From positions 28,399 through 92,398 of the IMG/VR virus record IMGVR_UViG_3300037484_000104: DNA of 64,000 bases. One strand, 5' to 3'. Under the pieces are notes generated by a model, which had not been told where the DNA came from, did no database searches, and saw only the letters and a list, made by a program, of their open reading frames with translations. The translations under genes were made by a program, and so were the position numbers. The DNA is from a virus. Of the stretch, positions 28,374 through 46,711 are shown one piece after another; positions within the stretch are counted from its first letter, which is position 1, and each line of letters begins with the position of its first letter.

Positions 28374-28599
28374 GTACTGTTACTTCACGTAATTGTTCCG
28401 AATATACCGGAGATGTACAACCATTGTTACATAATTGTATCTCGTAATTGTTATTTCCGCTGTCTTCAGCAATTTTACAAATTGTACCTTTATCAGCATA
28501 TGAACAACCACATGATAAAATACCTACTGTTAAGATAGCTAACTGGCCTACTTTAAATTTACTCATTTTTCTTTGATTAAATGGTTATTATTAAGAAAA

Positions 28600-34743: not shown

Positions 34744-35078
34744 TAGATAAGCATAAAATAACAGTAGTGTATCCAGACCTATACTTTGTAGTTATATACA
34801 AGTGGAATTACATGAAAGATTGTGGTGATCTGACTAATGTTGATTTTGAGGTATATGAAATATTAGAGATGACTGAATCTGAAGAAAGTGTAGTTTGTGA
34901 AAAAGAAGCAATGTGTGTGGGATTTATTAAATGGGACGGATGTTGTGATTTTCATATAGAAAGAACTCATTTTTGTGGATACTATAGATTCAATCAATTA
35001 AATAAAGTATTCGCTGAGATATACTATAAAGTTGAAGAGATTTGTAAAGTAGATGATTTAATAACTAAAGGAGCATGA
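34740..35078 (+). CDS. hypothetical protein
   Basis: GFIKWDGC..HFCG motif. Confidence 0.6.
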   Translation: MIDKHKITVVYPDLYFVVIYKWNYMKDCGDLTNVDFEVYEILEMTESEESVVCEKEAMCVGFIKWDGCCDFHIERTHFCGYYRFNQLNKVFAEIYYKVEEICKVDDLITKGA

Positions 35079-35383
35079 GTTTAATAACATTTCCAATTGA
35101 GTCATACCCAGTCTTATACAAGATGTACTGGAGTGATGACTTAGAAGAAGATAAGCGTATAGAGAATAACAAGGATAAGTTGTCAATATATGGACAGATA
35201 TACAATACTTACTATAATCAAACATTCGATGGTAACAGTTTATATACAGTTACGTATACTGGAAGAACTAGTGGTTGGCAGATTATCTTTAAGATATTAT
35301 ACTTGACTAATGATGGTAGTGTAGACTACCTATGGGAGTACTTTGATAACTGGGTTAAGATATTGAATTTAAATAGATATTAA
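35075..35383 (+). CDS. hypothetical protein
   Basis: 102 aa; weak MCP-like YLW..F..W segment. Confidence 0.55.
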   Translation: MSLITFPIESYPVLYKMYWSDDLEEDKRIENNKDKLSIYGQIYNTYYNQTFDGNSLYTVTYTGRTSGWQIIFKILYLTNDGSVDYLWEYFDNWVKILNLNRY

Positions 35384-35384
35384 G

Positions 35385-35780
35385 ATGAGTGATATAAGAA
35401 CATATAAAATGCCCGGTAGTTACAAGGGTATAAGTGATTTAAGTTCCATCTATGCTTTTCATGGTAACTCGCAAGGATATGATTCATGCTCTAATGATGT
35501 AAATGATTTTATTGGATCACAAGGATGGATGTCAGTATCTCATGGATTTAAAGATATTGATTATCTAAATCAAGATGAGGTTAATAAGAGGTCATTAGAG
35601 ATACAAAAAGAGAATGATGAGTATATCAAATCCTTATATAAATCTGGACAGTATGGAGAGTACAATGGAGATATTAATTTATCACTCAAATATATGCCTT
35701 TATATGATGATCCTTCACCAATTCACTCAAAGGGGGTTGAATCATACAGAATGGCATTTATAGATTTTAGTAAGGAATAA
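35385..35780 (+). CDS. small protein carrying an MCP C-terminal fragment
   Basis: NGDINLSLKYMPLYDD...KGVESYRMAFIDF vs MCP NGIELTLKHFPLYDN...KPLESYRMTFIDF. Confidence 0.8.
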   Translation: MSDIRTYKMPGSYKGISDLSSIYAFHGNSQGYDSCSNDVNDFIGSQGWMSVSHGFKDIDYLNQDEVNKRSLEIQKENDEYIKSLYKSGQYGEYNGDINLSLKYMPLYDDPSPIHSKGVESYRMAFIDFSKE

Positions 35781-35782
35781 TT

Positions 35783-36082
35783 ATGACTATACCTAAATCA
35801 TTTCAACTAGGTGGATCTACAATTAATGTAGAGGTTGTTAGTAATCCAATGGAAACAGGTAGTGCCGCTTGGATAGAATTAGCTACAGGAAGAATTAAAG
35901 TATCTAGTAATTATGTTGGATCACCTTGTAGTCAAGATTATATAGAATCTGGATTTTATCATGAATTAGTGCACGGTATATTACAAACTATGGGTAAAAA
36001 GGAGTTAGACAAGGATGAGGAATTTGTAGAAGGATTTGCTAATCTACTTCATCAATTTATTAAATCAGCAAAGTATGAGTAG
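35783..36082 (+). CDS. zincin-like metallopeptidase
   Basis: FYHELVHGIL (HExxH) plus downstream DEEFVE. Confidence 0.75.
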   Translation: MTIPKSFQLGGSTINVEVVSNPMETGSAAWIELATGRIKVSSNYVGSPCSQDYIESGFYHELVHGILQTMGKKELDKDEEFVEGFANLLHQFIKSAKYE

Positions 36083-36272
36083 ACTTGTAAATAAAATATT
36101 AGTGTTTGATGATGGTAGTGTAGAGATTACCAAATATAATAGTCCCACTCCATTATTAGATGAATTATGGAAGAAGGCTAAATATTGTAAATTAAAAGAT
36201 GGTACTCCTTGTACATGTAGAGATATGATGGATGAACTTATGATTGACAATGCTCTTAAAACAATGAAGTAA
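36075..36272 (+). CDS. small protein ending in an MCP N-terminal-like motif
   Basis: start MSRLVNK; C-terminal MMDELMIDNALKT vs MCP LVDENMLSNALVT. Confidence 0.6.
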   Translation: MSRLVNKILVFDDGSVEITKYNSPTPLLDELWKKAKYCKLKDGTPCTCRDMMDELMIDNALKTMK

Positions 36273-36689: not shown

Positions 36690-36872
36690 ATGACAACTAA
36701 TGATTATGCGACCGGTTACGGGATATATGAAAGTATGAAGACTGCTCCAATAAAAGAGATAGATTTTAATAACCTAAATAGTCTAAACGGAGATTGGATA
36801 ATTTATTGTGGTTCCGATACTGTAGACGAATGGATAAAATTAATTAATAAATATGAAATTAAAAGTAATTAA
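36690..36872 (+). CDS. small protein with MCP-like segments
   Basis: TGYGIYESM and WIIYCGSDTVDEWIKLI resemble MCP RGSGLLQQI and FVALTGEMGMKEFDRIL. Confidence 0.5.
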   Translation: MTTNDYATGYGIYESMKTAPIKEIDFNNLNSLNGDWIIYCGSDTVDEWIKLINKYEIKSN

Positions 36873-37311
36873 AGCAGTTAAAGGATTAGTTCCTGGAGAT
36901 ATATTAGATTATAATGAGAAAGATTCTAATTATGAGATCCTCAAAGTTGAAGAGGATATTACTGAATCTGGAAGTAGTAAGAAGTCATTAAAAGTTACTA
37001 TTCCTGAATACTTAGTAGATGACTTTAAAGAGTTTTTTACATGGGTAGACGATGATGGTAATGATATGAAAGTAGAAGAGTTTAGATATAAAGATAGTCC
37101 TAATTACGAATCTGATGTGGTAAAAGAGGTCGCTAAACCATCTGAACCAACAGATCTAGATTTACTTAGACAGAAAGTAATTGATCTAGAAAAGCAATTA
37201 GATGAGTATAAAAATCCAATAGATGGTTATATACAACATATTAAAAATAGAGTGTACAATATCCCAGTAGTTTATACATATAATCCTTATAGAACAATAT
37301 ATAATTGGTAA
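36853..37311 (+). CDS. conserved crAss-like hypothetical protein
   Basis: MKLKVIK...PGDIL; located upstream of the Zn-finger/terminase block. Confidence 0.6.
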   Translation: MKLKVIKAVKGLVPGDILDYNEKDSNYEILKVEEDITESGSSKKSLKVTIPEYLVDDFKEFFTWVDDDGNDMKVEEFRYKDSPNYESDVVKEVAKPSEPTDLDLLRQKVIDLEKQLDEYKNPIDGYIQHIKNRVYNIPVVYTYNPYRTIYNW

Positions 37312-39073: not shown

Positions 39074-41080
39074 ATGTATACAGTAGAAGTTAAAAAGATA
39101 GTTAATACAGACAAATTTAGACAGGCAGCCATATGTTGGCAAAAGAATGGTTATTATACACCTCATCCAAAAGGTACTACAGCTTATATGAAGTACTGGG
39201 ATGAAGAAGTTCTTAGATGTCTAGAAGGGTATTTGACAGAAGATGGAGATTATATATCTGGATATAATTATTTCTACTTAAATTACTCCCCTATTATTAT
39301 AAGGGAAGAATTAGAGGTTGAGAGGAACGGTAAGAAGTTTAAAAAATTAAATAGTATACGTAGTTTTCCTAACTTCTGGGATTATGATAAGGCTTTCTTT
39401 GATGCAGTTGAAGAAGCTGAACAACAAGGTAAACATTTGACATTTCTAAAACCTCGTGGTATTGGAGCATCATTTAAAGGATCTAGTATGTTGACTAGAA
39501 ACTATTTCCTAATACCAGAATCTACATCACTAGCTATCACAGAAGAAATGGAATCTTTAACAAAAGATGGGATTCTTACTAAAGCTTGGGATATAGTAGA
39601 CTTTATAAATGAACATACTGCGTGGACAAAGAAGTCGCAGAAAGTAAATACTAAATTACATAAGAGAGCTTCTTTATTATTAGATAATGGAACAACTCAG
39701 TTAGAAGTAGGTTACAAATCAGAGATTATAGGATTAAGTGTCAAGAATAATCCAGATAAACCTCGTGGTAAACGATTTAAATTATGTGTGATAGACGAGG
39801 TTGGATTAATAACAAGTCCTATACATTTATACTCTAGTTTAAGGCATGGGGCTGAGGAAGATGGTGAAGCATTTGGATTAATTATACTCCAAGGTACCGG
39901 AGGTAAACAAGAAGCTGACTATTCAGAAATGCGTAAACTCTATTATGAACCTAATGTATATAACTTTCTAGAATGTAATAATATATGGGATGATGGAAAG
40001 TCAGGTACAGCTTGTGGATTCTTCTGGCCAAGATATTATAACATAAGAGGATTTATGGATGAGGATGGAAACTCCCTCATACAAGAAGCTAGAAAAAGAG
40101 AACAAGAAGAAAGAGAAAGAATTATAACAAAGGCCTCGGATAAAAATCAAATAGATATCCATTGTGCTGAAAGACCATTTTGTCCTGAAGAAAGTTTACT
40201 ACAAGTAAGTGGTAACATATTTCCTAAAAAGGATTTATTAAACCATTTATCCTATATACAAACTACTGAGGTTATTCGTAATTATAAACAAGTTGGTGAT
40301 TTAACCTTTGGTCCAAATGGAATACTAGAGTGGAGTCAGCAGGCTAAACCAAAAGATATAACTAAATATAATTTAGATAAGACTCAAGTTAAAGATGGTG
40401 CTATAGTGATATGGGAACACCCAGAACCAAATCCTCCTTGGGGATTATATCTAGCTGGAACTGATCCATACGATCATAATCAAGCAGAATCTAGTGATTC
40501 ATTAGGTTCTATATTTATATACAAAGGATTTCAATCATTAGGTAAAACTTCTGATACAATTGTAGCTGAGTATACAGGTCGACCAGCATCCGCTGACGAC
40601 TTTTATGAGAATGTAAGAAAACTATTAATATACTATAATGCTACATGTCTTTATGAAAATCAATGGCCAGGTCTCTCAGTATATATGAGGAATAAGCATT
40701 CAGATTACATGTTGGCGGATCAACCAAGTATTATATCAAAAATAATAAATGATAGTAGAGTCAATCGTGGTAAAGGTATCCACATGACTAATCAGATTAA
40801 AGACTGGGCTGAATTAAAGATAAGAGATTGGTTACTAGAAGAGTATGAGGAAGGTAAACTAAACCTTACTAAAATATTATCAGAACCCTTATTAGAAGAA
40901 CTTATAGCTTATAATGGAGAAGTTAATACTGATAGAGTTATTGCTTTAATGATGATTATGATATATAAAGAAGAATTACATGATCTGCATAATAAAAATA
41001 GAGAGGTAATCGTAAAAACTAAAAAGTTGTTTGAATATCCTGTGTTTGATATGAACAGAGAATTCACTACATTTAATTAA
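39074..41080 (+). CDS. terL: terminase large subunit
   Basis: KPRGIGAS (Walker A-like), VIDEVG (Walker B), GTGG, nuclease GTDPYD, EYTGRP, TDRVIA. Confidence 0.92.
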   Translation: MYTVEVKKIVNTDKFRQAAICWQKNGYYTPHPKGTTAYMKYWDEEVLRCLEGYLTEDGDYISGYNYFYLNYSPIIIREELEVERNGKKFKKLNSIRSFPNFWDYDKAFFDAVEEAEQQGKHLTFLKPRGIGASFKGSSMLTRNYFLIPESTSLAITEEMESLTKDGILTKAWDIVDFINEHTAWTKKSQKVNTKLHKRASLLLDNGTTQLEVGYKSEIIGLSVKNNPDKPRGKRFKLCVIDEVGLITSPIHLYSSLRHGAEEDGEAFGLIILQGTGGKQEADYSEMRKLYYEPNVYNFLECNNIWDDGKSGTACGFFWPRYYNIRGFMDEDGNSLIQEARKREQEERERIITKASDKNQIDIHCAERPFCPEESLLQVSGNIFPKKDLLNHLSYIQTTEVIRNYKQVGDLTFGPNGILEWSQQAKPKDITKYNLDKTQVKDGAIVIWEHPEPNPPWGLYLAGTDPYDHNQAESSDSLGSIFIYKGFQSLGKTSDTIVAEYTGRPASADDFYENVRKLLIYYNATCLYENQWPGLSVYMRNKHSDYMLADQPSIISKIINDSRVNRGKGIHMTNQIKDWAELKIRDWLLEEYEEGKLNLTKILSEPLLEELIAYNGEVNTDRVIALMMIMIYKEELHDLHNKNREVIVKTKKLFEYPVFDMNREFTTFN

Positions 41081-41088
41081 CGAAACAA

Positions 41089-43455
41089 ATGGATTTATAT
41101 TACAAACGAACGGAATTTCCAGTACAGAAATTACCACTAAAACAGAAGGATGAAGCTTGGAGGAGAGGGTGCGTAGATGTACTTATCTCTAGAGAAGGAT
41201 CTACTTACGCTAGTGGTAAATCTAGACGAGATATTCTAAGAACTAACTATGATTTATATAATGGAATCTTTAATGAAGATGACTTTAAATACGTAGTTAA
41301 TCCATATAATGTGGACGATGGTTTTCCAGCACATCCTCAAAGTATGAATATAATCAAGTCTAAAATAGATTTGCTTATAGGTGAGGAAACAAAACGTCCT
41401 TTCAATATTAAAGTATTCTCTACTAATGAGGAGTCTATCTCGCAGGTACAGGAAGTTAAGATGAACATGCTTATGGAAGAGTATATATCATCTACACTAG
41501 AGGGACAACCAGAAGAAGTTATAGATAAGAAGTTACAGGAAATAGATTCTTATATCAAGAATAAGTATTCTAGTGTAGCTGAGAAAACAGCTTACGACTC
41601 TCTTCAGTACTTACGTCAACAACTCTTATTAGAACATGAGTTTATCAAAGGTTGGAAAGACGGATTAATAGCAGGAGAAGAAGTATACTATACTGGAATT
41701 GTTAATGGAGAACCCATGTGTGAACGTGTAAATCCTTACCATTTCACTTATGATAACGATCCTGATATAGAGTATATAGAAGATGGAGATTGGGCCGTGA
41801 GACGCTTTAGAATGGCTCCTGGAGCAATATACGATAGGTTTCAGAACGTTATGGACGAATCAGATCTAGATAACCTACTTAAAATGGTTGGAGGAGATTC
41901 TCTAAAGACTAGACCTAGTGATGTTAACTTTAATACCATCATATATAAAGATAAGATTATCTCAGATATTACTAATGATGAATTCTTTAAAGGACAACTT
42001 ATACCTGTATGGCATACAGTATGGAAGTCATTTAAGAAGATATTCTACATAGTAGACGGAGAAGGTAATGATTTAGATGTTGTAGATGAATTCTTTAAAT
42101 TGTCAGACGAAGAGAAGGCAATGGGACTAACTCTACAAAAAGATTGGATTACTGAAACATGGGAAGGGTTTAGAATAGGTACAGATATATACTTAGAAAT
42201 ACGTCCTGTAGAATACCAATATCAGTCATTAGAAAATCCTAAGGTATCTAAACTCCCTTATGTAGGGGCTAAATATAATTGTACTAATACTAAGAATAGA
42301 TCTCTAGTGGATACTATGAAATCTTTACAGTATATGTATATAGTAGTTTGGTATCGTCTAGAGTTAGCTTTGGCTAGAGATAAAGGTAAGATAATCACTA
42401 TGGATATCACACAAATTCCTAAATCAATGGGGATTGATATCAAACAATGGATGCATTACTTATCTGCATTAGGTGTCAACTTAGTTAATCCATATGAAGA
42501 AGGTTGGGATATACCTGGTCGTTCTGGTGGACATCCCGCTTCTATGAACCAATTTGGTCAAGCAGATTTAACTATGTCTAAAGTAATTGCTGACTATATA
42601 GGTTTATTAGATAAAATTGAAGAAATGTGTGGAGAACTTTCTGGAGTATCTAGACAACGTCAAGGATCTATAGCATCTAATGAATTAGTTGGTAATGTAC
42701 AGAGATCAGTAGTACAGTCTAGTCATATAACAGAACCTCTATTTGAGATACATAATCAAGTTAAACGTAGGACATACACTGCTTTACTTAACTGTGCTAA
42801 ATATGCTTGGACTGAGAATAAACGTAAGAAGTTAAACTTTATAGTAGATGACTTTTCTAGGACATTCTTAAATATAGATGATGACTTTCTATACTCAGAC
42901 TTCGATGTGTTTGTAAATGATTCAACTAGAGAAAATCAGAACTTAGAGGCATTAAAAGGTCTTATTCAACCAGCTATGCAAAATGGAGCTACTCTATCAG
43001 ATGCTGCTTTAATACTTACAACAGAGAGTATATCTGAAGTTAGGAATAAGTTACAAGAGATAGAAGAACGTAGAGTTCAGCAACAACAGGCTATGGAACA
43101 ACAGCAACAACAGATGAATGCTATGATTGCTCAACAACAAGCAGAAGCTATGGCAGAAGATAGACGTATTAAAGAAGAGGATTCTATACGTAAATCTGAA
43201 ACACAGATTCAAGTTGCTTTAATTGGGGCAGAATCTAATAGCGAACCTGATATGGATAATAGTGATGAAGATACTGGATTAGAGGCCCAAAAGCTTGGAT
43301 TACAGACACGTAAGATAGAAAACGATAGTAGACTTAAGCAAGCTCAAATAAATGAAGTGGTGAGGTCTAATATGGTGTCTGAGAGGCAGAAAGAAAAAGA
43401 GATAGCTATTAAACAAAAGGTTGCAAATCGACCAATTAGTAAATCAACAAAATAA
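41089..43455 (+). CDS. portal protein
   Basis: 788 aa after terL; PVQKLP..K...W, NIIKSKIDLLIGEE, SGVSRQRQG, C-terminal Q-rich coil. Confidence 0.9.
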   Translation: MDLYYKRTEFPVQKLPLKQKDEAWRRGCVDVLISREGSTYASGKSRRDILRTNYDLYNGIFNEDDFKYVVNPYNVDDGFPAHPQSMNIIKSKIDLLIGEETKRPFNIKVFSTNEESISQVQEVKMNMLMEEYISSTLEGQPEEVIDKKLQEIDSYIKNKYSSVAEKTAYDSLQYLRQQLLLEHEFIKGWKDGLIAGEEVYYTGIVNGEPMCERVNPYHFTYDNDPDIEYIEDGDWAVRRFRMAPGAIYDRFQNVMDESDLDNLLKMVGGDSLKTRPSDVNFNTIIYKDKIISDITNDEFFKGQLIPVWHTVWKSFKKIFYIVDGEGNDLDVVDEFFKLSDEEKAMGLTLQKDWITETWEGFRIGTDIYLEIRPVEYQYQSLENPKVSKLPYVGAKYNCTNTKNRSLVDTMKSLQYMYIVVWYRLELALARDKGKIITMDITQIPKSMGIDIKQWMHYLSALGVNLVNPYEEGWDIPGRSGGHPASMNQFGQADLTMSKVIADYIGLLDKIEEMCGELSGVSRQRQGSIASNELVGNVQRSVVQSSHITEPLFEIHNQVKRRTYTALLNCAKYAWTENKRKKLNFIVDDFSRTFLNIDDDFLYSDFDVFVNDSTRENQNLEALKGLIQPAMQNGATLSDAALILTTESISEVRNKLQEIEERRVQQQQAMEQQQQQMNAMIAQQQAEAMAEDRRIKEEDSIRKSETQIQVALIGAESNSEPDMDNSDEDTGLEAQKLGLQTRKIENDSRLKQAQINEVVRSNMVSERQKEKEIAIKQKVANRPISKSTK

Positions 43456-44024: not shown

Positions 44025-45215
44025 ATGGCAAAAAATAAAGGATTCGGTGGATTTGACGAAATGAGTGATATGTTCCTACCATTTAATGAAGCAGGTAGTG
44101 ATACTATAGTAGATCCCGAAGAAATTGAAAGACAAATGGCTAAGTTAGATGATGTAGATGAAATACCTACAGATACTGATGAACCAAAGAAATCGGAGGT
44201 AAAATCTCCTGAGAAGCAATCTAAACCAACTGTTAAAAGAGTTGAGACGTTAGAAGAAGATAAAGATATAGAGGAAAAAGTGCTTGAGGCTATCGACAAT
44301 AAATTAACTAAACCTTCAGAAGAAACAAAATTAGATGAAGAGTTAGTTGAGGTAGAATATGAAGAGGCTGATTTAGTAGATGCATTTGCTGATATATTTG
44401 TTGAAGAATTAGATTGGAAATTTGAAGAAGGTGAAAAACCTAAATCAATTAAGGAATTAGTAGAGTACATGCAAAATGTAATTGAAGAAAATTCTGCTCC
44501 AAGTTATGCTAGCGATGATATAAAAGCATTAGATGAATTTGTTAAAAATGGTGGGGAATTATCTGATTTTTATAAACAAGTTTATACAACTGAGATTAAT
44601 ATTGACACTGTAGATTTAACAAAGGAATCTAATCAGAAGATTATAATTAAAGAAAGTCTTCGTAATAAAGGTTATTCTGAACAACGTATAGAAAAGTTAA
44701 TTTCTCGTTACGAGGTTTCTGATTCTCTAGAAGAAGAAGCTCAAGACTCTTTAGAAGAGGTTAAGGAACATAGAGAAAAAGTTAAAACTCAGCTATTAGA
44801 GACACAGAAAAAACAAGCTGCTATTGAATTAAAACAACAACAAGACTTTATATCAAGCGTACAGAAAATCATAGACGAAGCCAAAGATGTGCGTGGTTTC
44901 GAACTTTCTAAGAAAGAAAAGCAAGAACTCGTAGACTACATATTCAAACCGGATAAAGATGGTATGACTAGGTATCAAAAGGAGTATAACAATGACCTCC
45001 GCAATCTAGTTGAATCTGCTTTCTTTACAATGAAAGGTAAAGATTTTGAGCAACAAATGGAAAAAAAAGCTACCACAGAAGCTATAAAGAAGCTTAAATT
45101 GAAATTAAAGACAAAAGGAAAGAGCACAAAGAATGCTGAATCCGATCAAGAAGAGTCAAATAGTAAAGTTCCCAACCTCTGGGATCTAGCAGGTAGAGAA
45201 TTAAGAAAATTTTAA
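44025..45215 (+). CDS. putative capsid scaffolding protein
   Basis: very acidic 396 aa protein immediately before the MCP. Confidence 0.65.
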   Translation: MAKNKGFGGFDEMSDMFLPFNEAGSDTIVDPEEIERQMAKLDDVDEIPTDTDEPKKSEVKSPEKQSKPTVKRVETLEEDKDIEEKVLEAIDNKLTKPSEETKLDEELVEVEYEEADLVDAFADIFVEELDWKFEEGEKPKSIKELVEYMQNVIEENSAPSYASDDIKALDEFVKNGGELSDFYKQVYTTEINIDTVDLTKESNQKIIIKESLRNKGYSEQRIEKLISRYEVSDSLEEEAQDSLEEVKEHREKVKTQLLETQKKQAAIELKQQQDFISSVQKIIDEAKDVRGFELSKKEKQELVDYIFKPDKDGMTRYQKEYNNDLRNLVESAFFTMKGKDFEQQMEKKATTEAIKKLKLKLKTKGKSTKNAESDQEESNSKVPNLWDLAGRELRKF

Positions 45216-45238: not shown

Positions 45239-46711
45239 ATGCAAGATACCGTATTAAATAATCTTCAACTCTTTAGGTCCAAATATTTTTCTGGACTTGT
45301 AGACGAGAATATGCTTTCTAATGCTTTAGTTACGGAGCCTCATAGAGTGTCTAATGTTTTATCCTATATTTTCGGACGTTATGAAAATACTACTGTTGAC
45401 TTTTTGACAGCAGGTTTAGGTAAAACAATCATCACTGAAAATCGTCAGTATGAGTGGCCTGTAATGATTGAAAGCGAAAAAGCAATTTCAATTAAACAAG
45501 CTAGATGGCAGGGTTCCGCTGTAGTATCAACTGATACTCCTGGTCAAAATGGTTCTCCTATTCAATTGTGGTTAGGTGAAAAATGGTTTGGTCCTGGTGC
45601 TATCCTCGAATTTGATGATAAAGAATATCAAGTAATTGTACAGGGTACTCCATATCAAGATGGTAGTGATTGGGTTTATACAGTTGTTGTGGCTGATGGT
45701 CAGTCTACATCATATATTCTTCCATCATTATTAGCTGCTGGAAAACAAGTATCACGTGCTGGTTCTGCTTATCCTGAATACAGTGAAGAAGCTGATATCG
45801 TGAACTATCAAACACCGTTTAAATTACGTAACCAATTAACTACTATGCGTTTATCGTATGATATTACTGGTTCTGCTTTATCCGATTTGATGGTAATAGC
45901 AATGCGTGATCCTAAAACTAAAAGGACTTCTTATTTATGGAGTGACTATCAAGAATGGATTGCCTTACGTCAATGGTACAATACTATTGAATACCAGTTG
46001 GTATACGATAAGTACAGTAGCAATGCTGATGGTAGCACAGACTTAGTTGGTTCTAATGGACGTCCTATTTATAGAGGCTCTGGTTTGTTACAACAGATCG
46101 CTCCTTCTAATCGTCAATCATATACTACACTTACTGCAGACTTAGTAGAAGACTTCTTATTCAATCTTGCCTATAATGTACTTGGTAATAGCGAACGTAA
46201 ATTCGTAGCTCTTACAGGTGAAATGGGTATGAAAGAATTCGATCGTATATTGAGAGCCAAGGCTTCTTCTTATACACTCGTAGATACTAAATTTGTAACT
46301 GGTAGTGGTCAAGACCTTACTTTAGGTGGACAGTTTACAACTTATAAGATGCTCAATGGTATTGAATTAACATTGAAACATTTCCCACTTTACGATAATA
46401 TCGTTAAGAACAGAAAGTTGCATCCAATTAGTGGTAAACCACTTGAATCCTATCGTATGACTTTCATTGATTTTGGTAACCGTGATGGTGAATCCAATAT
46501 CCAAAAAGTTGTTAAAAAGGGTCGTGAAATGGTTATGTGGCATACAGGTGGGTCTGCAGCTCCTGGAACAGGATTTGCAAAATCTATCAATACACTCCGT
46601 TCTAATGCAAAAGACGGATACCAAGTTCACTTCTTATCAGAACAAGGTATTATGATGAAAGATCCTACTTCGGCAGGTGAACTCTATGTATCTAGTGAAT
46701 ATGGAATTTAA
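45239..46711 (+). CDS. major capsid protein (HK97 fold, crAss type)
   Basis: 490 aa; DENMLSNAL, YEWPV, ESYRMTFIDF, DGYQVHFLSEQGI; followed by a terminator. Confidence 0.9.
   Translation: MQDTVLNNLQLFRSKYFSGLVDENMLSNALVTEPHRVSNVLSYIFGRYENTTVDFLTAGLGKTIITENRQYEWPVMIESEKAISIKQARWQGSAVVSTDTPGQNGSPIQLWLGEKWFGPGAILEFDDKEYQVIVQGTPYQDGSDWVYTVVVADGQSTSYILPSLLAAGKQVSRAGSAYPEYSEEADIVNYQTPFKLRNQLTTMRLSYDITGSALSDLMVIAMRDPKTKRTSYLWSDYQEWIALRQWYNTIEYQLVYDKYSSNADGSTDLVGSNGRPIYRGSGLLQQIAPSNRQSYTTLTADLVEDFLFNLAYNVLGNSERKFVALTGEMGMKEFDRILRAKASSYTLVDTKFVTGSGQDLTLGGQFTTYKMLNGIELTLKHFPLYDNIVKNRKLHPISGKPLESYRMTFIDFGNRDGESNIQKVVKKGREMVMWHTGGSAAPGTGFAKSINTLRSNAKDGYQVHFLSEQGIMMKDPTSAGELYVSSEYGI

Follow-up and report, generated by a model that had tools for sequence, protein, structure and literature searches.

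The window analysed here (64,000 nucleotides, G+C ~30%) is part of a 92.4-kb virus record, of which it spans positions 28399–92398. Leftward genes occupy 1–31 kb of the window and the coding strand switches near 31–33 kb; the rightward unit that follows opens with ~20 small ORFs (32.8–39 kb), then continues into the genes for the large terminase, the portal and the major capsid protein (MCP). The features to which the text refers are:

35075–35383, plus strand: 102-aa ORF, conserved upstream flank of a variable slot (84% nucleotide identity to L007 84–395)
35385–35780, plus strand: ORF131, a small accessory protein of 131 aa, ATG to TAA (ORF listing and homologues)
35385–35627, plus strand: N-terminal domain of ORF131, residues 1–81 (alignments and AlphaFold model)
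35628–35777, plus strand: MCP-derived C-terminal tail of ORF131, residues 82–131 (hhalign, Pfam, shuffles and dN/dS)
35783–36082, plus strand: 99-aa ORF with an HExxH motif, downstream flank of the slot (phrog_1233, E 2e-14)
39074–41080, rightward unit: large terminase
41089–43455, rightward unit: portal
45239–46711, plus strand: MCP, crAss-type HK97 fold, intact, 490 aa (Pfam PF23898, Crass_capsid)
46310–46480, plus strand: MCP residues 358–414, the segment copied in ORF131 (BLASTP, Smith-Waterman and profile alignments)

The MCP covers profile positions 2–494 of 496 in PF23898 (E 1e-188) and is homologous to gp32 of crAss001 (PDB 7QOF; E 1e-40); together with the terminase and portal genes, this crAss-type MCP identifies the phage as crAss-like. 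An acidic protein of 396 aa is encoded at 44025–45215. ORF131 is tightly packed, with spacers of 1 nt and 2 nt to its neighbours. The upstream 102-aa ORF is also present in L007, the closest relative of the phage (MCP 97% identical). The downstream 99-aa ORF matches the N-terminal third of phrog_1233, and only its 3′ third is conserved with L007.

The preliminary description of this locus had proposed that ORF131 carries a near-copy, ~40 aa in length, of a C-terminal segment of the MCP. This proposal is borne out both by BLASTP of ORF131 against the MCP (E 1e-10; 36/107 identities, ORF 31–128 against MCP 311–412) and by hhalign of the ORF131 family profile against a profile of 70 MCPs, which pairs ORF 82–130 with MCP 358–414 (probability 96.8%, E 2.5e-10). 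The Smith-Waterman score of 106 compares with a shuffle mean of 34 (sd 5; z ~14–15), none of 1000 shuffles coming near it, and at z ~15 the match is significant. The signal resides in the last 46 residues of ORF131 (score 93; reached by 0/500 shuffles). The core alignment of the tail contains 25–26 identities over 42–49 aligned positions and reproduces the 9/10 identity noted earlier for the final strand. The Pfam crAss-capsid model matches ORF131 residues 74–130 at profile positions 359–424 with E 2e-4, the score of 20.3 bits being under the gathering cut-off of 27 bits. A tblastn search of ORF131 against 50,697 GenBank phage records returned only the MCP genes of other crAss phages and, conversely, the family HMM matches the same MCP segment (residues ~370–430) in all 80 related MCPs. 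From these alignments, we identify the MCP gene at 45239–46711 as the source or template of the ORF131 tail. On the basis of HK97 topology and the gp32 alignment, we take MCP 358–414 to be, probably, the last hairpin of the P-domain together with the strand returning to the A-domain.

For the first 85 residues of ORF131, homology to the MCP was rejected; in the shuffle test, residues 1–85 score at background against the MCP, and the 'TYKM' likeness to which attention had been drawn at the N-terminus is not significant alone (profile E 0.2–0.4). When the N-terminal domain is aligned by profile, its best match (residues 3–60; 35385–35560), though not significant, falls once more on MCP 365–430, so that ORF131 may contain a further, strongly diverged copy of the MCP segment. 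Separately, a distant family member (P0126) opens with seven residues that match the first strand of the MCP hairpin exactly. The possibility that neighbouring small ORFs are further MCP fragments was also rejected: when all 20 small ORFs were tested by shuffling against the MCP and four control proteins, ORF131 alone stood out (z 14.8), with ORFs 36036–36272 and 36690–36872 giving z values of 1.8 and −0.9 against the MCP, respectively. Elsewhere in this region, a 152-aa ORF (36853–37311) has a local score of 70 against the portal (41089–43455; z 5.0 with 100 shuffles), which is borderline after ~100 comparisons.

The tail and MCP segments are ~60% identical at the DNA level. Selection on the MCP-like residues, as had been suggested, agrees with the comparison of synonymous and non-synonymous divergence between the tail and the MCP segment of the same phage (dN 0.42, dS 1.96, dN/dS ~0.2; 42 aligned codons), in which dS is saturated, and with the retention of the motif across a family of 138 clusters (described below). 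The same codon is used at 13 of the 26 identical residues, with 13.8 expected from the codon usage of the phage; three other genomes gave observed and expected counts of 13 and 14.1, 6 and 7.2, and 8 and 8.7. Since these counts lie at expectation, the likeness is held at the protein level rather than resulting from recent duplication or gene conversion; recent gene conversion is ruled out by the 60% nucleotide identity, the dS of ~2 and the same-codon counts taken together. With a dS of ~2, a dN/dS of ~0.2, codon sharing at expectation and a motif kept family-wide, we conclude from the sequence comparisons that the copy is old and selectively maintained, being neither a recent duplicate nor a decaying relic. 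A neutral origin, in which a decaying fragment of a duplicated MCP gene lies by chance within an ORF, finds support in the fragmentary nature of the match and in nothing else. It is effectively refuted by the existence of homologues, by the conservation of reading frame and length across 138 clusters, by the low dN/dS at saturated dS and by the confident fold prediction, and we consider it highly improbable.

Homologues place ORF131 in a large, previously undescribed family of small accessory proteins of crAss-like phages. A word-indexed search yielded 12 free-standing near homologues of 125–137 aa (one of 167 aa) with 46–75% identity, and a profile search of 1.84 billion representative proteins gave 138 clusters (defined at 50% identity) at E <= 1e-3, 81 of them at E <= 1e-10. 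Members are almost all 100–190 aa in length, and none of the 138 clusters is a full-length MCP. Family members begin with an N-terminal strand and a near-invariant G-x-x-D-L motif, followed by a long helix and then by another strand that leads into a P-L-[YF]-D turn, the Asp of which is near-invariant; the final MCP-like strand usually comes next. ORF131 carries all of these (profile E 1e-49 to 1e-65); its N-terminal domain contributes the strand, the near-invariant G15, D18 and L19, and most of the long helix (63–87). The most conserved part of the family is this non-MCP N-terminal domain, within which a block at residues 24–48 is strongly conserved in the ORF131 subfamily and replaced in other subfamilies. 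The 3′ limit of the MCP-like stretch differs between members: ~14% stop right after the turn and are devoid of the final strand, whilst some have longer MCP-like tails that extend into MCP residues ~415–428. The Pfam capsid model matches 14/106 members by themselves (E <= 0.01; best E 1.3e-7).

Searches of the annotated collections returned little else. A Pfam search of ORF131 gave nothing beyond the sub-threshold capsid match, and the match to phrog_7654 is marginal (E 0.031, 15.7 bits, residues 21–88). No family members were found in GenBank phages by tblastn, for which P0016 as query returned nothing and P0111 returned MCP genes only. Single-protein scans of viral contigs and of genome contigs revealed no further loci, and a scan for the A6 subfamily found nothing.

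Some members have unusual arrangements. In P0073, a SET domain (27.2 bits, above cut-off) lies C-terminal to the tail; in another alignment member (by eye P0124), an N-terminal substrate-binding fragment of Lon (E 4e-10) replaces the usual N-domain. Each of these is either a real fusion or an artefact of gene calling or assembly. One in-frame TAG (codon 1319–1321) divides the family gene at L106:1031–1483 (IMGVR_UViG_3300014204_003190) into two halves that are otherwise intact. Some crAss-like lineages read TAG as sense, and the split is either a fresh pseudogene or a sign of a phage that reads TAG in this way.

An AlphaFold model of ORF131, built with a 106-sequence alignment, has an overall pLDDT of 91 and a pTM of 0.74; residues 1–110 are confident, with pLDDT values of 96–99 over residues 11–100. 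Strands are predicted at residues 4–9, 25–27, 49–51 and 97–102, and helices at 39–45, 63–87 and 105–108. The tail is made up of the 97–102 strand, a short turn or helix at PLYD (105–108), a shortened loop, and a final strand-like segment (119–128). The last ~20 residues, which include the strand common with the MCP, are modelled as coil (pLDDT 61–78) and do not pack against the remainder of the protein. The model thus portrays ORF131 as a compact N-terminal α/β domain bearing a flexible, aromatic and strand-prone tail. The unpacked state predicted for the last ~20 residues fits a docking tail and does not prove one; the binding surface proposed in the preliminary description is an inference.

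Comparison of the predicted structure with known folds gave no relatives. Foldseek searches of the PDB and of BFVD returned no match at E <= 0.001; VIA-align of two models against 48,161 chains gave best Z scores of 3.5–3.6, to unrelated chains, with none above background; and the ESM Atlas offered no usable match or neighbour. Searching all PDB sequences with the family profile (hmmsearch, E <= 10) returned coiled-coil noise only, and anti-defence mimics such as DSAD1 and Ocr did not rise above background in the fold searches of ORF131.

Both a family member and an MCP were available from six genomes, which permitted the construction of a 6x6 matrix of scores between tails and MCP segments. 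The cognate pair scores best in three genomes, namely that of the window (94 vs 61), G002 (102 vs 78) and G025 (45 vs 39), and the centred diagonal terms are positive in 6/6. The diagonal sum of 352 compares with a permutation mean of 232 and is reached by 2/720 permutations (p ~0.003), and cognate sums exceed cross sums in 14/15 quartets; three of the six cognate pairs carry most of this signal. Across the family, tail type tracks MCP clade and not N-domain subfamily. Tails of the G002 clade occur both in P0020 and in P0111, whose N-domain is different; the tail of P0011 lies nearer to a window-clade MCP (138) than to the tail of ORF131 (94); and the tail of P0121 pairs with the MCP of G001, of which it is the starred sister in the maximum-likelihood (ML) tree. 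In that tree (52 columns), the tails form one clade in 0/200 bootstrap trees. The AU test of 'all tails one clade' gave a borderline p of 0.063, so that a single origin is not formally rejected. Fine-scale tracking of the window's own MCP was rejected: within its MCP clade, tail similarity is not related to MCP closeness (rho −0.06), and some MCPs with 63–70% identity score higher against the ORF131 tail than does the window's own. We consider these results, with moderate confidence, to suggest concerted evolution at the level of clades, which could have arisen through ancient, repeated capture or conversion with subsequent purifying selection, or through co-evolution.

These data also bear on whether the MCP-like piece mimics the capsid at all. 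It might instead have been captured once and exapted as a building block, now forming part of the protein's own fold or of an oligomer interface, in which case the likeness to the MCP would reflect shared structural constraints with no functional link to the capsid. The borderline AU result, the missing last strand of some members, the concentration of the most conserved residues in the N-terminal domain, and the absence of fine-scale tracking within the MCP clade are all compatible with such a history. However, it would predict neither the preference for the cognate MCP (p ~0.003) nor a tail type that follows MCP clade, and it sits poorly with the modelled last 20 residues, which are left unpacked in an otherwise confident prediction. 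We therefore judge exaptation of this kind to be unlikely; mimicry of the MCP segment is probably what the tail is for.

The gene is not present throughout the lineage. Among 80 viral contigs with MCPs 61–97% identical to that of the window, the family profile detected no small family member at the loci compared, and the family gene is absent from the whole records of 15 larger genomes with MCPs in the same identity range (nine of them >= 90% complete). The genome of the window itself contains a single copy. In L007, the flanking genes are conserved and an unrelated 84-aa ORF (L007:398–652) occupies the slot of ORF131. The absence from 15 relatives and the replacement in L007 indicate, on gene content, that the ORF131 gene is accessory and that its slot is variable, forming a hot spot of gene replacement.

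Family members were found in 13 other loci, where their neighbours (genes for DNA ligase, DNA polymerase A, a 5′–3′ exonuclease and a P-loop kinase, and a Clp-protease-like gene) are those of replication modules; in two genomes, the family gene and the MCP gene are on opposite strands. The window and G002 have it upstream of the terminase, on the structural-gene strand. Placement in replication modules and on the opposite strand to the MCP argues against a core role in assembly or structure. Two further features of these loci were observed. A P-loop (d)NMP-kinase-like gene recurs 1–3 kb upstream of the family gene in several unrelated genomes (L107, L110, L108 and L002). The family member of G001 is immediately preceded by a Clp-protease-like gene (L004:7153–7686; Pfam CLP_protease, E 1e-5), the longest reading frame of which overlaps, at its end, the ATG of the family gene.

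Gene position is pertinent to the idea that the protein is a passenger of the virion, in which the tail would be a putative capsid-docking tag by which the protein is carried, as cargo or decoration, into the capsid or onto its surface. The location of the MCP-like tag at the very C-terminus, its co-variation with the resident MCP, and the position of the gene upstream of the terminase in the window and G002 would be expected of a passenger; decoration and cargo proteins are often accessory, and the member fused to a SET-domain enzyme looks as if the module had delivered a payload. In most other genomes, however, the gene forms part of the replication module and is sometimes encoded on the strand that does not carry the MCP, and no sequence similarity was detected to the solved virion proteins of crAss001 in the PDB. 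A passenger role thus seems improbable to us.

The same distribution lends itself to a host-directed role, as a decoy or antagonist. The tail would copy an MCP epitope that is read by a host abortive-infection sensor, chaperone or quality-control protease, and the small protein, made before or with the MCP, would occupy the host factor without triggering it, or soak it up. The patchy accessory distribution, the variable slot, and placement amongst early or replication genes are typical of counter-defence genes; the tail is predicted to be an exposed, aromatic, strand-like peptide, and host sensors are known to read phage capsid and tail proteins, sometimes through linear aromatic patterns (PMC13728456; bioRxiv 10.1101/2024.02.24.581848). 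The member with the Lon substrate-binding fragment and the Clp-protease-like gene overlapping the family gene in G001 would also fit, but these protease links are single cases. Moreover, early display of a trigger epitope would normally set off the sensor, which obliges this explanation to make extra assumptions, and sequence and fold searches (PDB, BFVD and VIA-align) revealed no similarity to known anti-defence proteins. By analogy with the systems cited, we regard a host-directed decoy as possible, if doubtful. The more specific form, a counter-defence or counter-proteolysis decoy that is made with the replication genes and has a tail renewed, or co-evolving, to match the resident MCP, is marginally more doubtful still. 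The SET fusion, the Lon fragment and the Clp-like neighbour are single-case hints on which we place no weight in choosing between explanations.

Our analyses thus support ORF131 being a real, selectively maintained accessory protein of crAss-like phages. As to its action, we tentatively favour a tail that mimics the MCP segment and docks on the phage's own MCP or procapsid, or on an assembly intermediate, whilst acknowledging that the alternatives together carry considerable weight. That the tail binds at all, to which partner, and with what consequence, is what we infer. The tail would occupy the site that normally recognises MCP ~358–414, probably by β-strand pairing onto the usual contact of that segment, and the N-terminal domain would supply the effect by blocking, tethering or recruiting; among possible partners, we think the MCP of the phage itself, or an intermediate in its assembly, the most likely. 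The P-domain hairpins of adjacent subunits contact one another at the three-fold axes of HK97-type shells, so that a hairpin copy could bind at these points; it would then need to change in step with the resident MCP.

Docking on the MCP or its assembly intermediates is consistent with the significant homology of an old copy kept by selection, with the length and architecture conserved over 138 clusters, and with the modelled pairing of a confident domain with an unpacked aromatic, strand-prone tail. It would also account for the cognate co-variation, in which tail type tracks MCP clade across N-domain subfamilies, and it agrees with the failure of the tails to form one clade in any of 200 bootstrap trees, the placement of one tail as starred sister of an MCP, and the varied 3′ limits of the MCP-like stretch. 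Several observations pull the other way. The gene is missing from 15 genomes with 61–97% identical MCPs and replaced in L007, such that the MCP evidently assembles without ORF131, and in this respect a host-directed role fits better than one in assembly. Elsewhere, the gene lies among replication genes and not structural genes; ~14% of members end before the final strand; no fine-scale tracking of tail and MCP is seen within the window clade; and the AU test (p 0.063) and the small set of cognate pairs (just six, three of which carry most of the signal) limit the strength of the co-variation argument.

Crassvirales rank with the most abundant phages known, and no function has been assigned to most of their small genes. 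The family described here is new, in that its 138 clusters have no significant Pfam or PHROG family of their own, lack counterparts in GenBank phages and gave no structural match. It has the unusual trait of bearing, on a predicted flexible tail, a copy of one MCP segment that is kept by selection and matched to MCP clade. Should this tail dock on the capsid, it would mark an interface used in assembly or packaging.

Relative to the Crassvirales MCP (PF23898; crAss001 gp32, PDB 7QOF), the homology of ORF131 is confined to its C-terminal ~50 residues, which correspond to MCP ~358–414, or ~12% of the MCP; the other ~80 residues form an unrelated domain, and ORF131 is not a capsid protein. A full-length HK97-type capsid protein differs likewise in extent, ORF131 having 131 aa against 490 aa and matching profile positions 359–424 of 496 only. 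Capsid paralogues with special roles include the T4 vertex protein gp24 and SaPIbov5 Ccm, an MCP homologue that redirects capsid size. These are similarly derived from HK97-fold MCPs and used beyond the main lattice, but they are full-length HK97 folds, whereas ORF131 keeps one hairpin-plus-strand segment on a different domain. T4 internal proteins and encapsulin cargo use capsid-targeting or cargo-loading peptides which, like the putative ORF131 tag, are short, terminal, specific to the resident shell and carried on a payload; unlike the ORF131 tail, they are not known to be copies of the shell protein itself. The auxiliary capsid proteins gp36 and the portal-vertex protein gp57 of crAss001 bind the crAss MCP lattice (PMC10172136). 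They are small or accessory, as is ORF131, but their genomic context differs, and the family profile has no sequence similarity to PDB chains including gp36, gp57 and the cargo proteins.

The closest parallels to a decoy come from host defence. CapRel SJ46 senses the MCP (PMC13728456), the HigBAC chaperone HigC senses aromatic patterns of lambda gpV (bioRxiv 10.1101/2024.02.24.581848), and DSAD1 is a phage inhibitor of the mimic type (PMC11087589). Together they supply the logic by which ORF131 might act as a decoy, in that sensors read capsid or tail segments and small early phage proteins occupy sensors. A phage inhibitor that copies a segment of the phage's own capsid was not found in the phage collection, the solved structures, the viral fold library or the literature searched. 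If ORF131 were such a decoy, it would, to our knowledge, be the first known instance in which a phage employs part of its own capsid protein as a decoy against immunity, and its tail would mark an MCP epitope that is sensed by the hosts of crAss-like phages.
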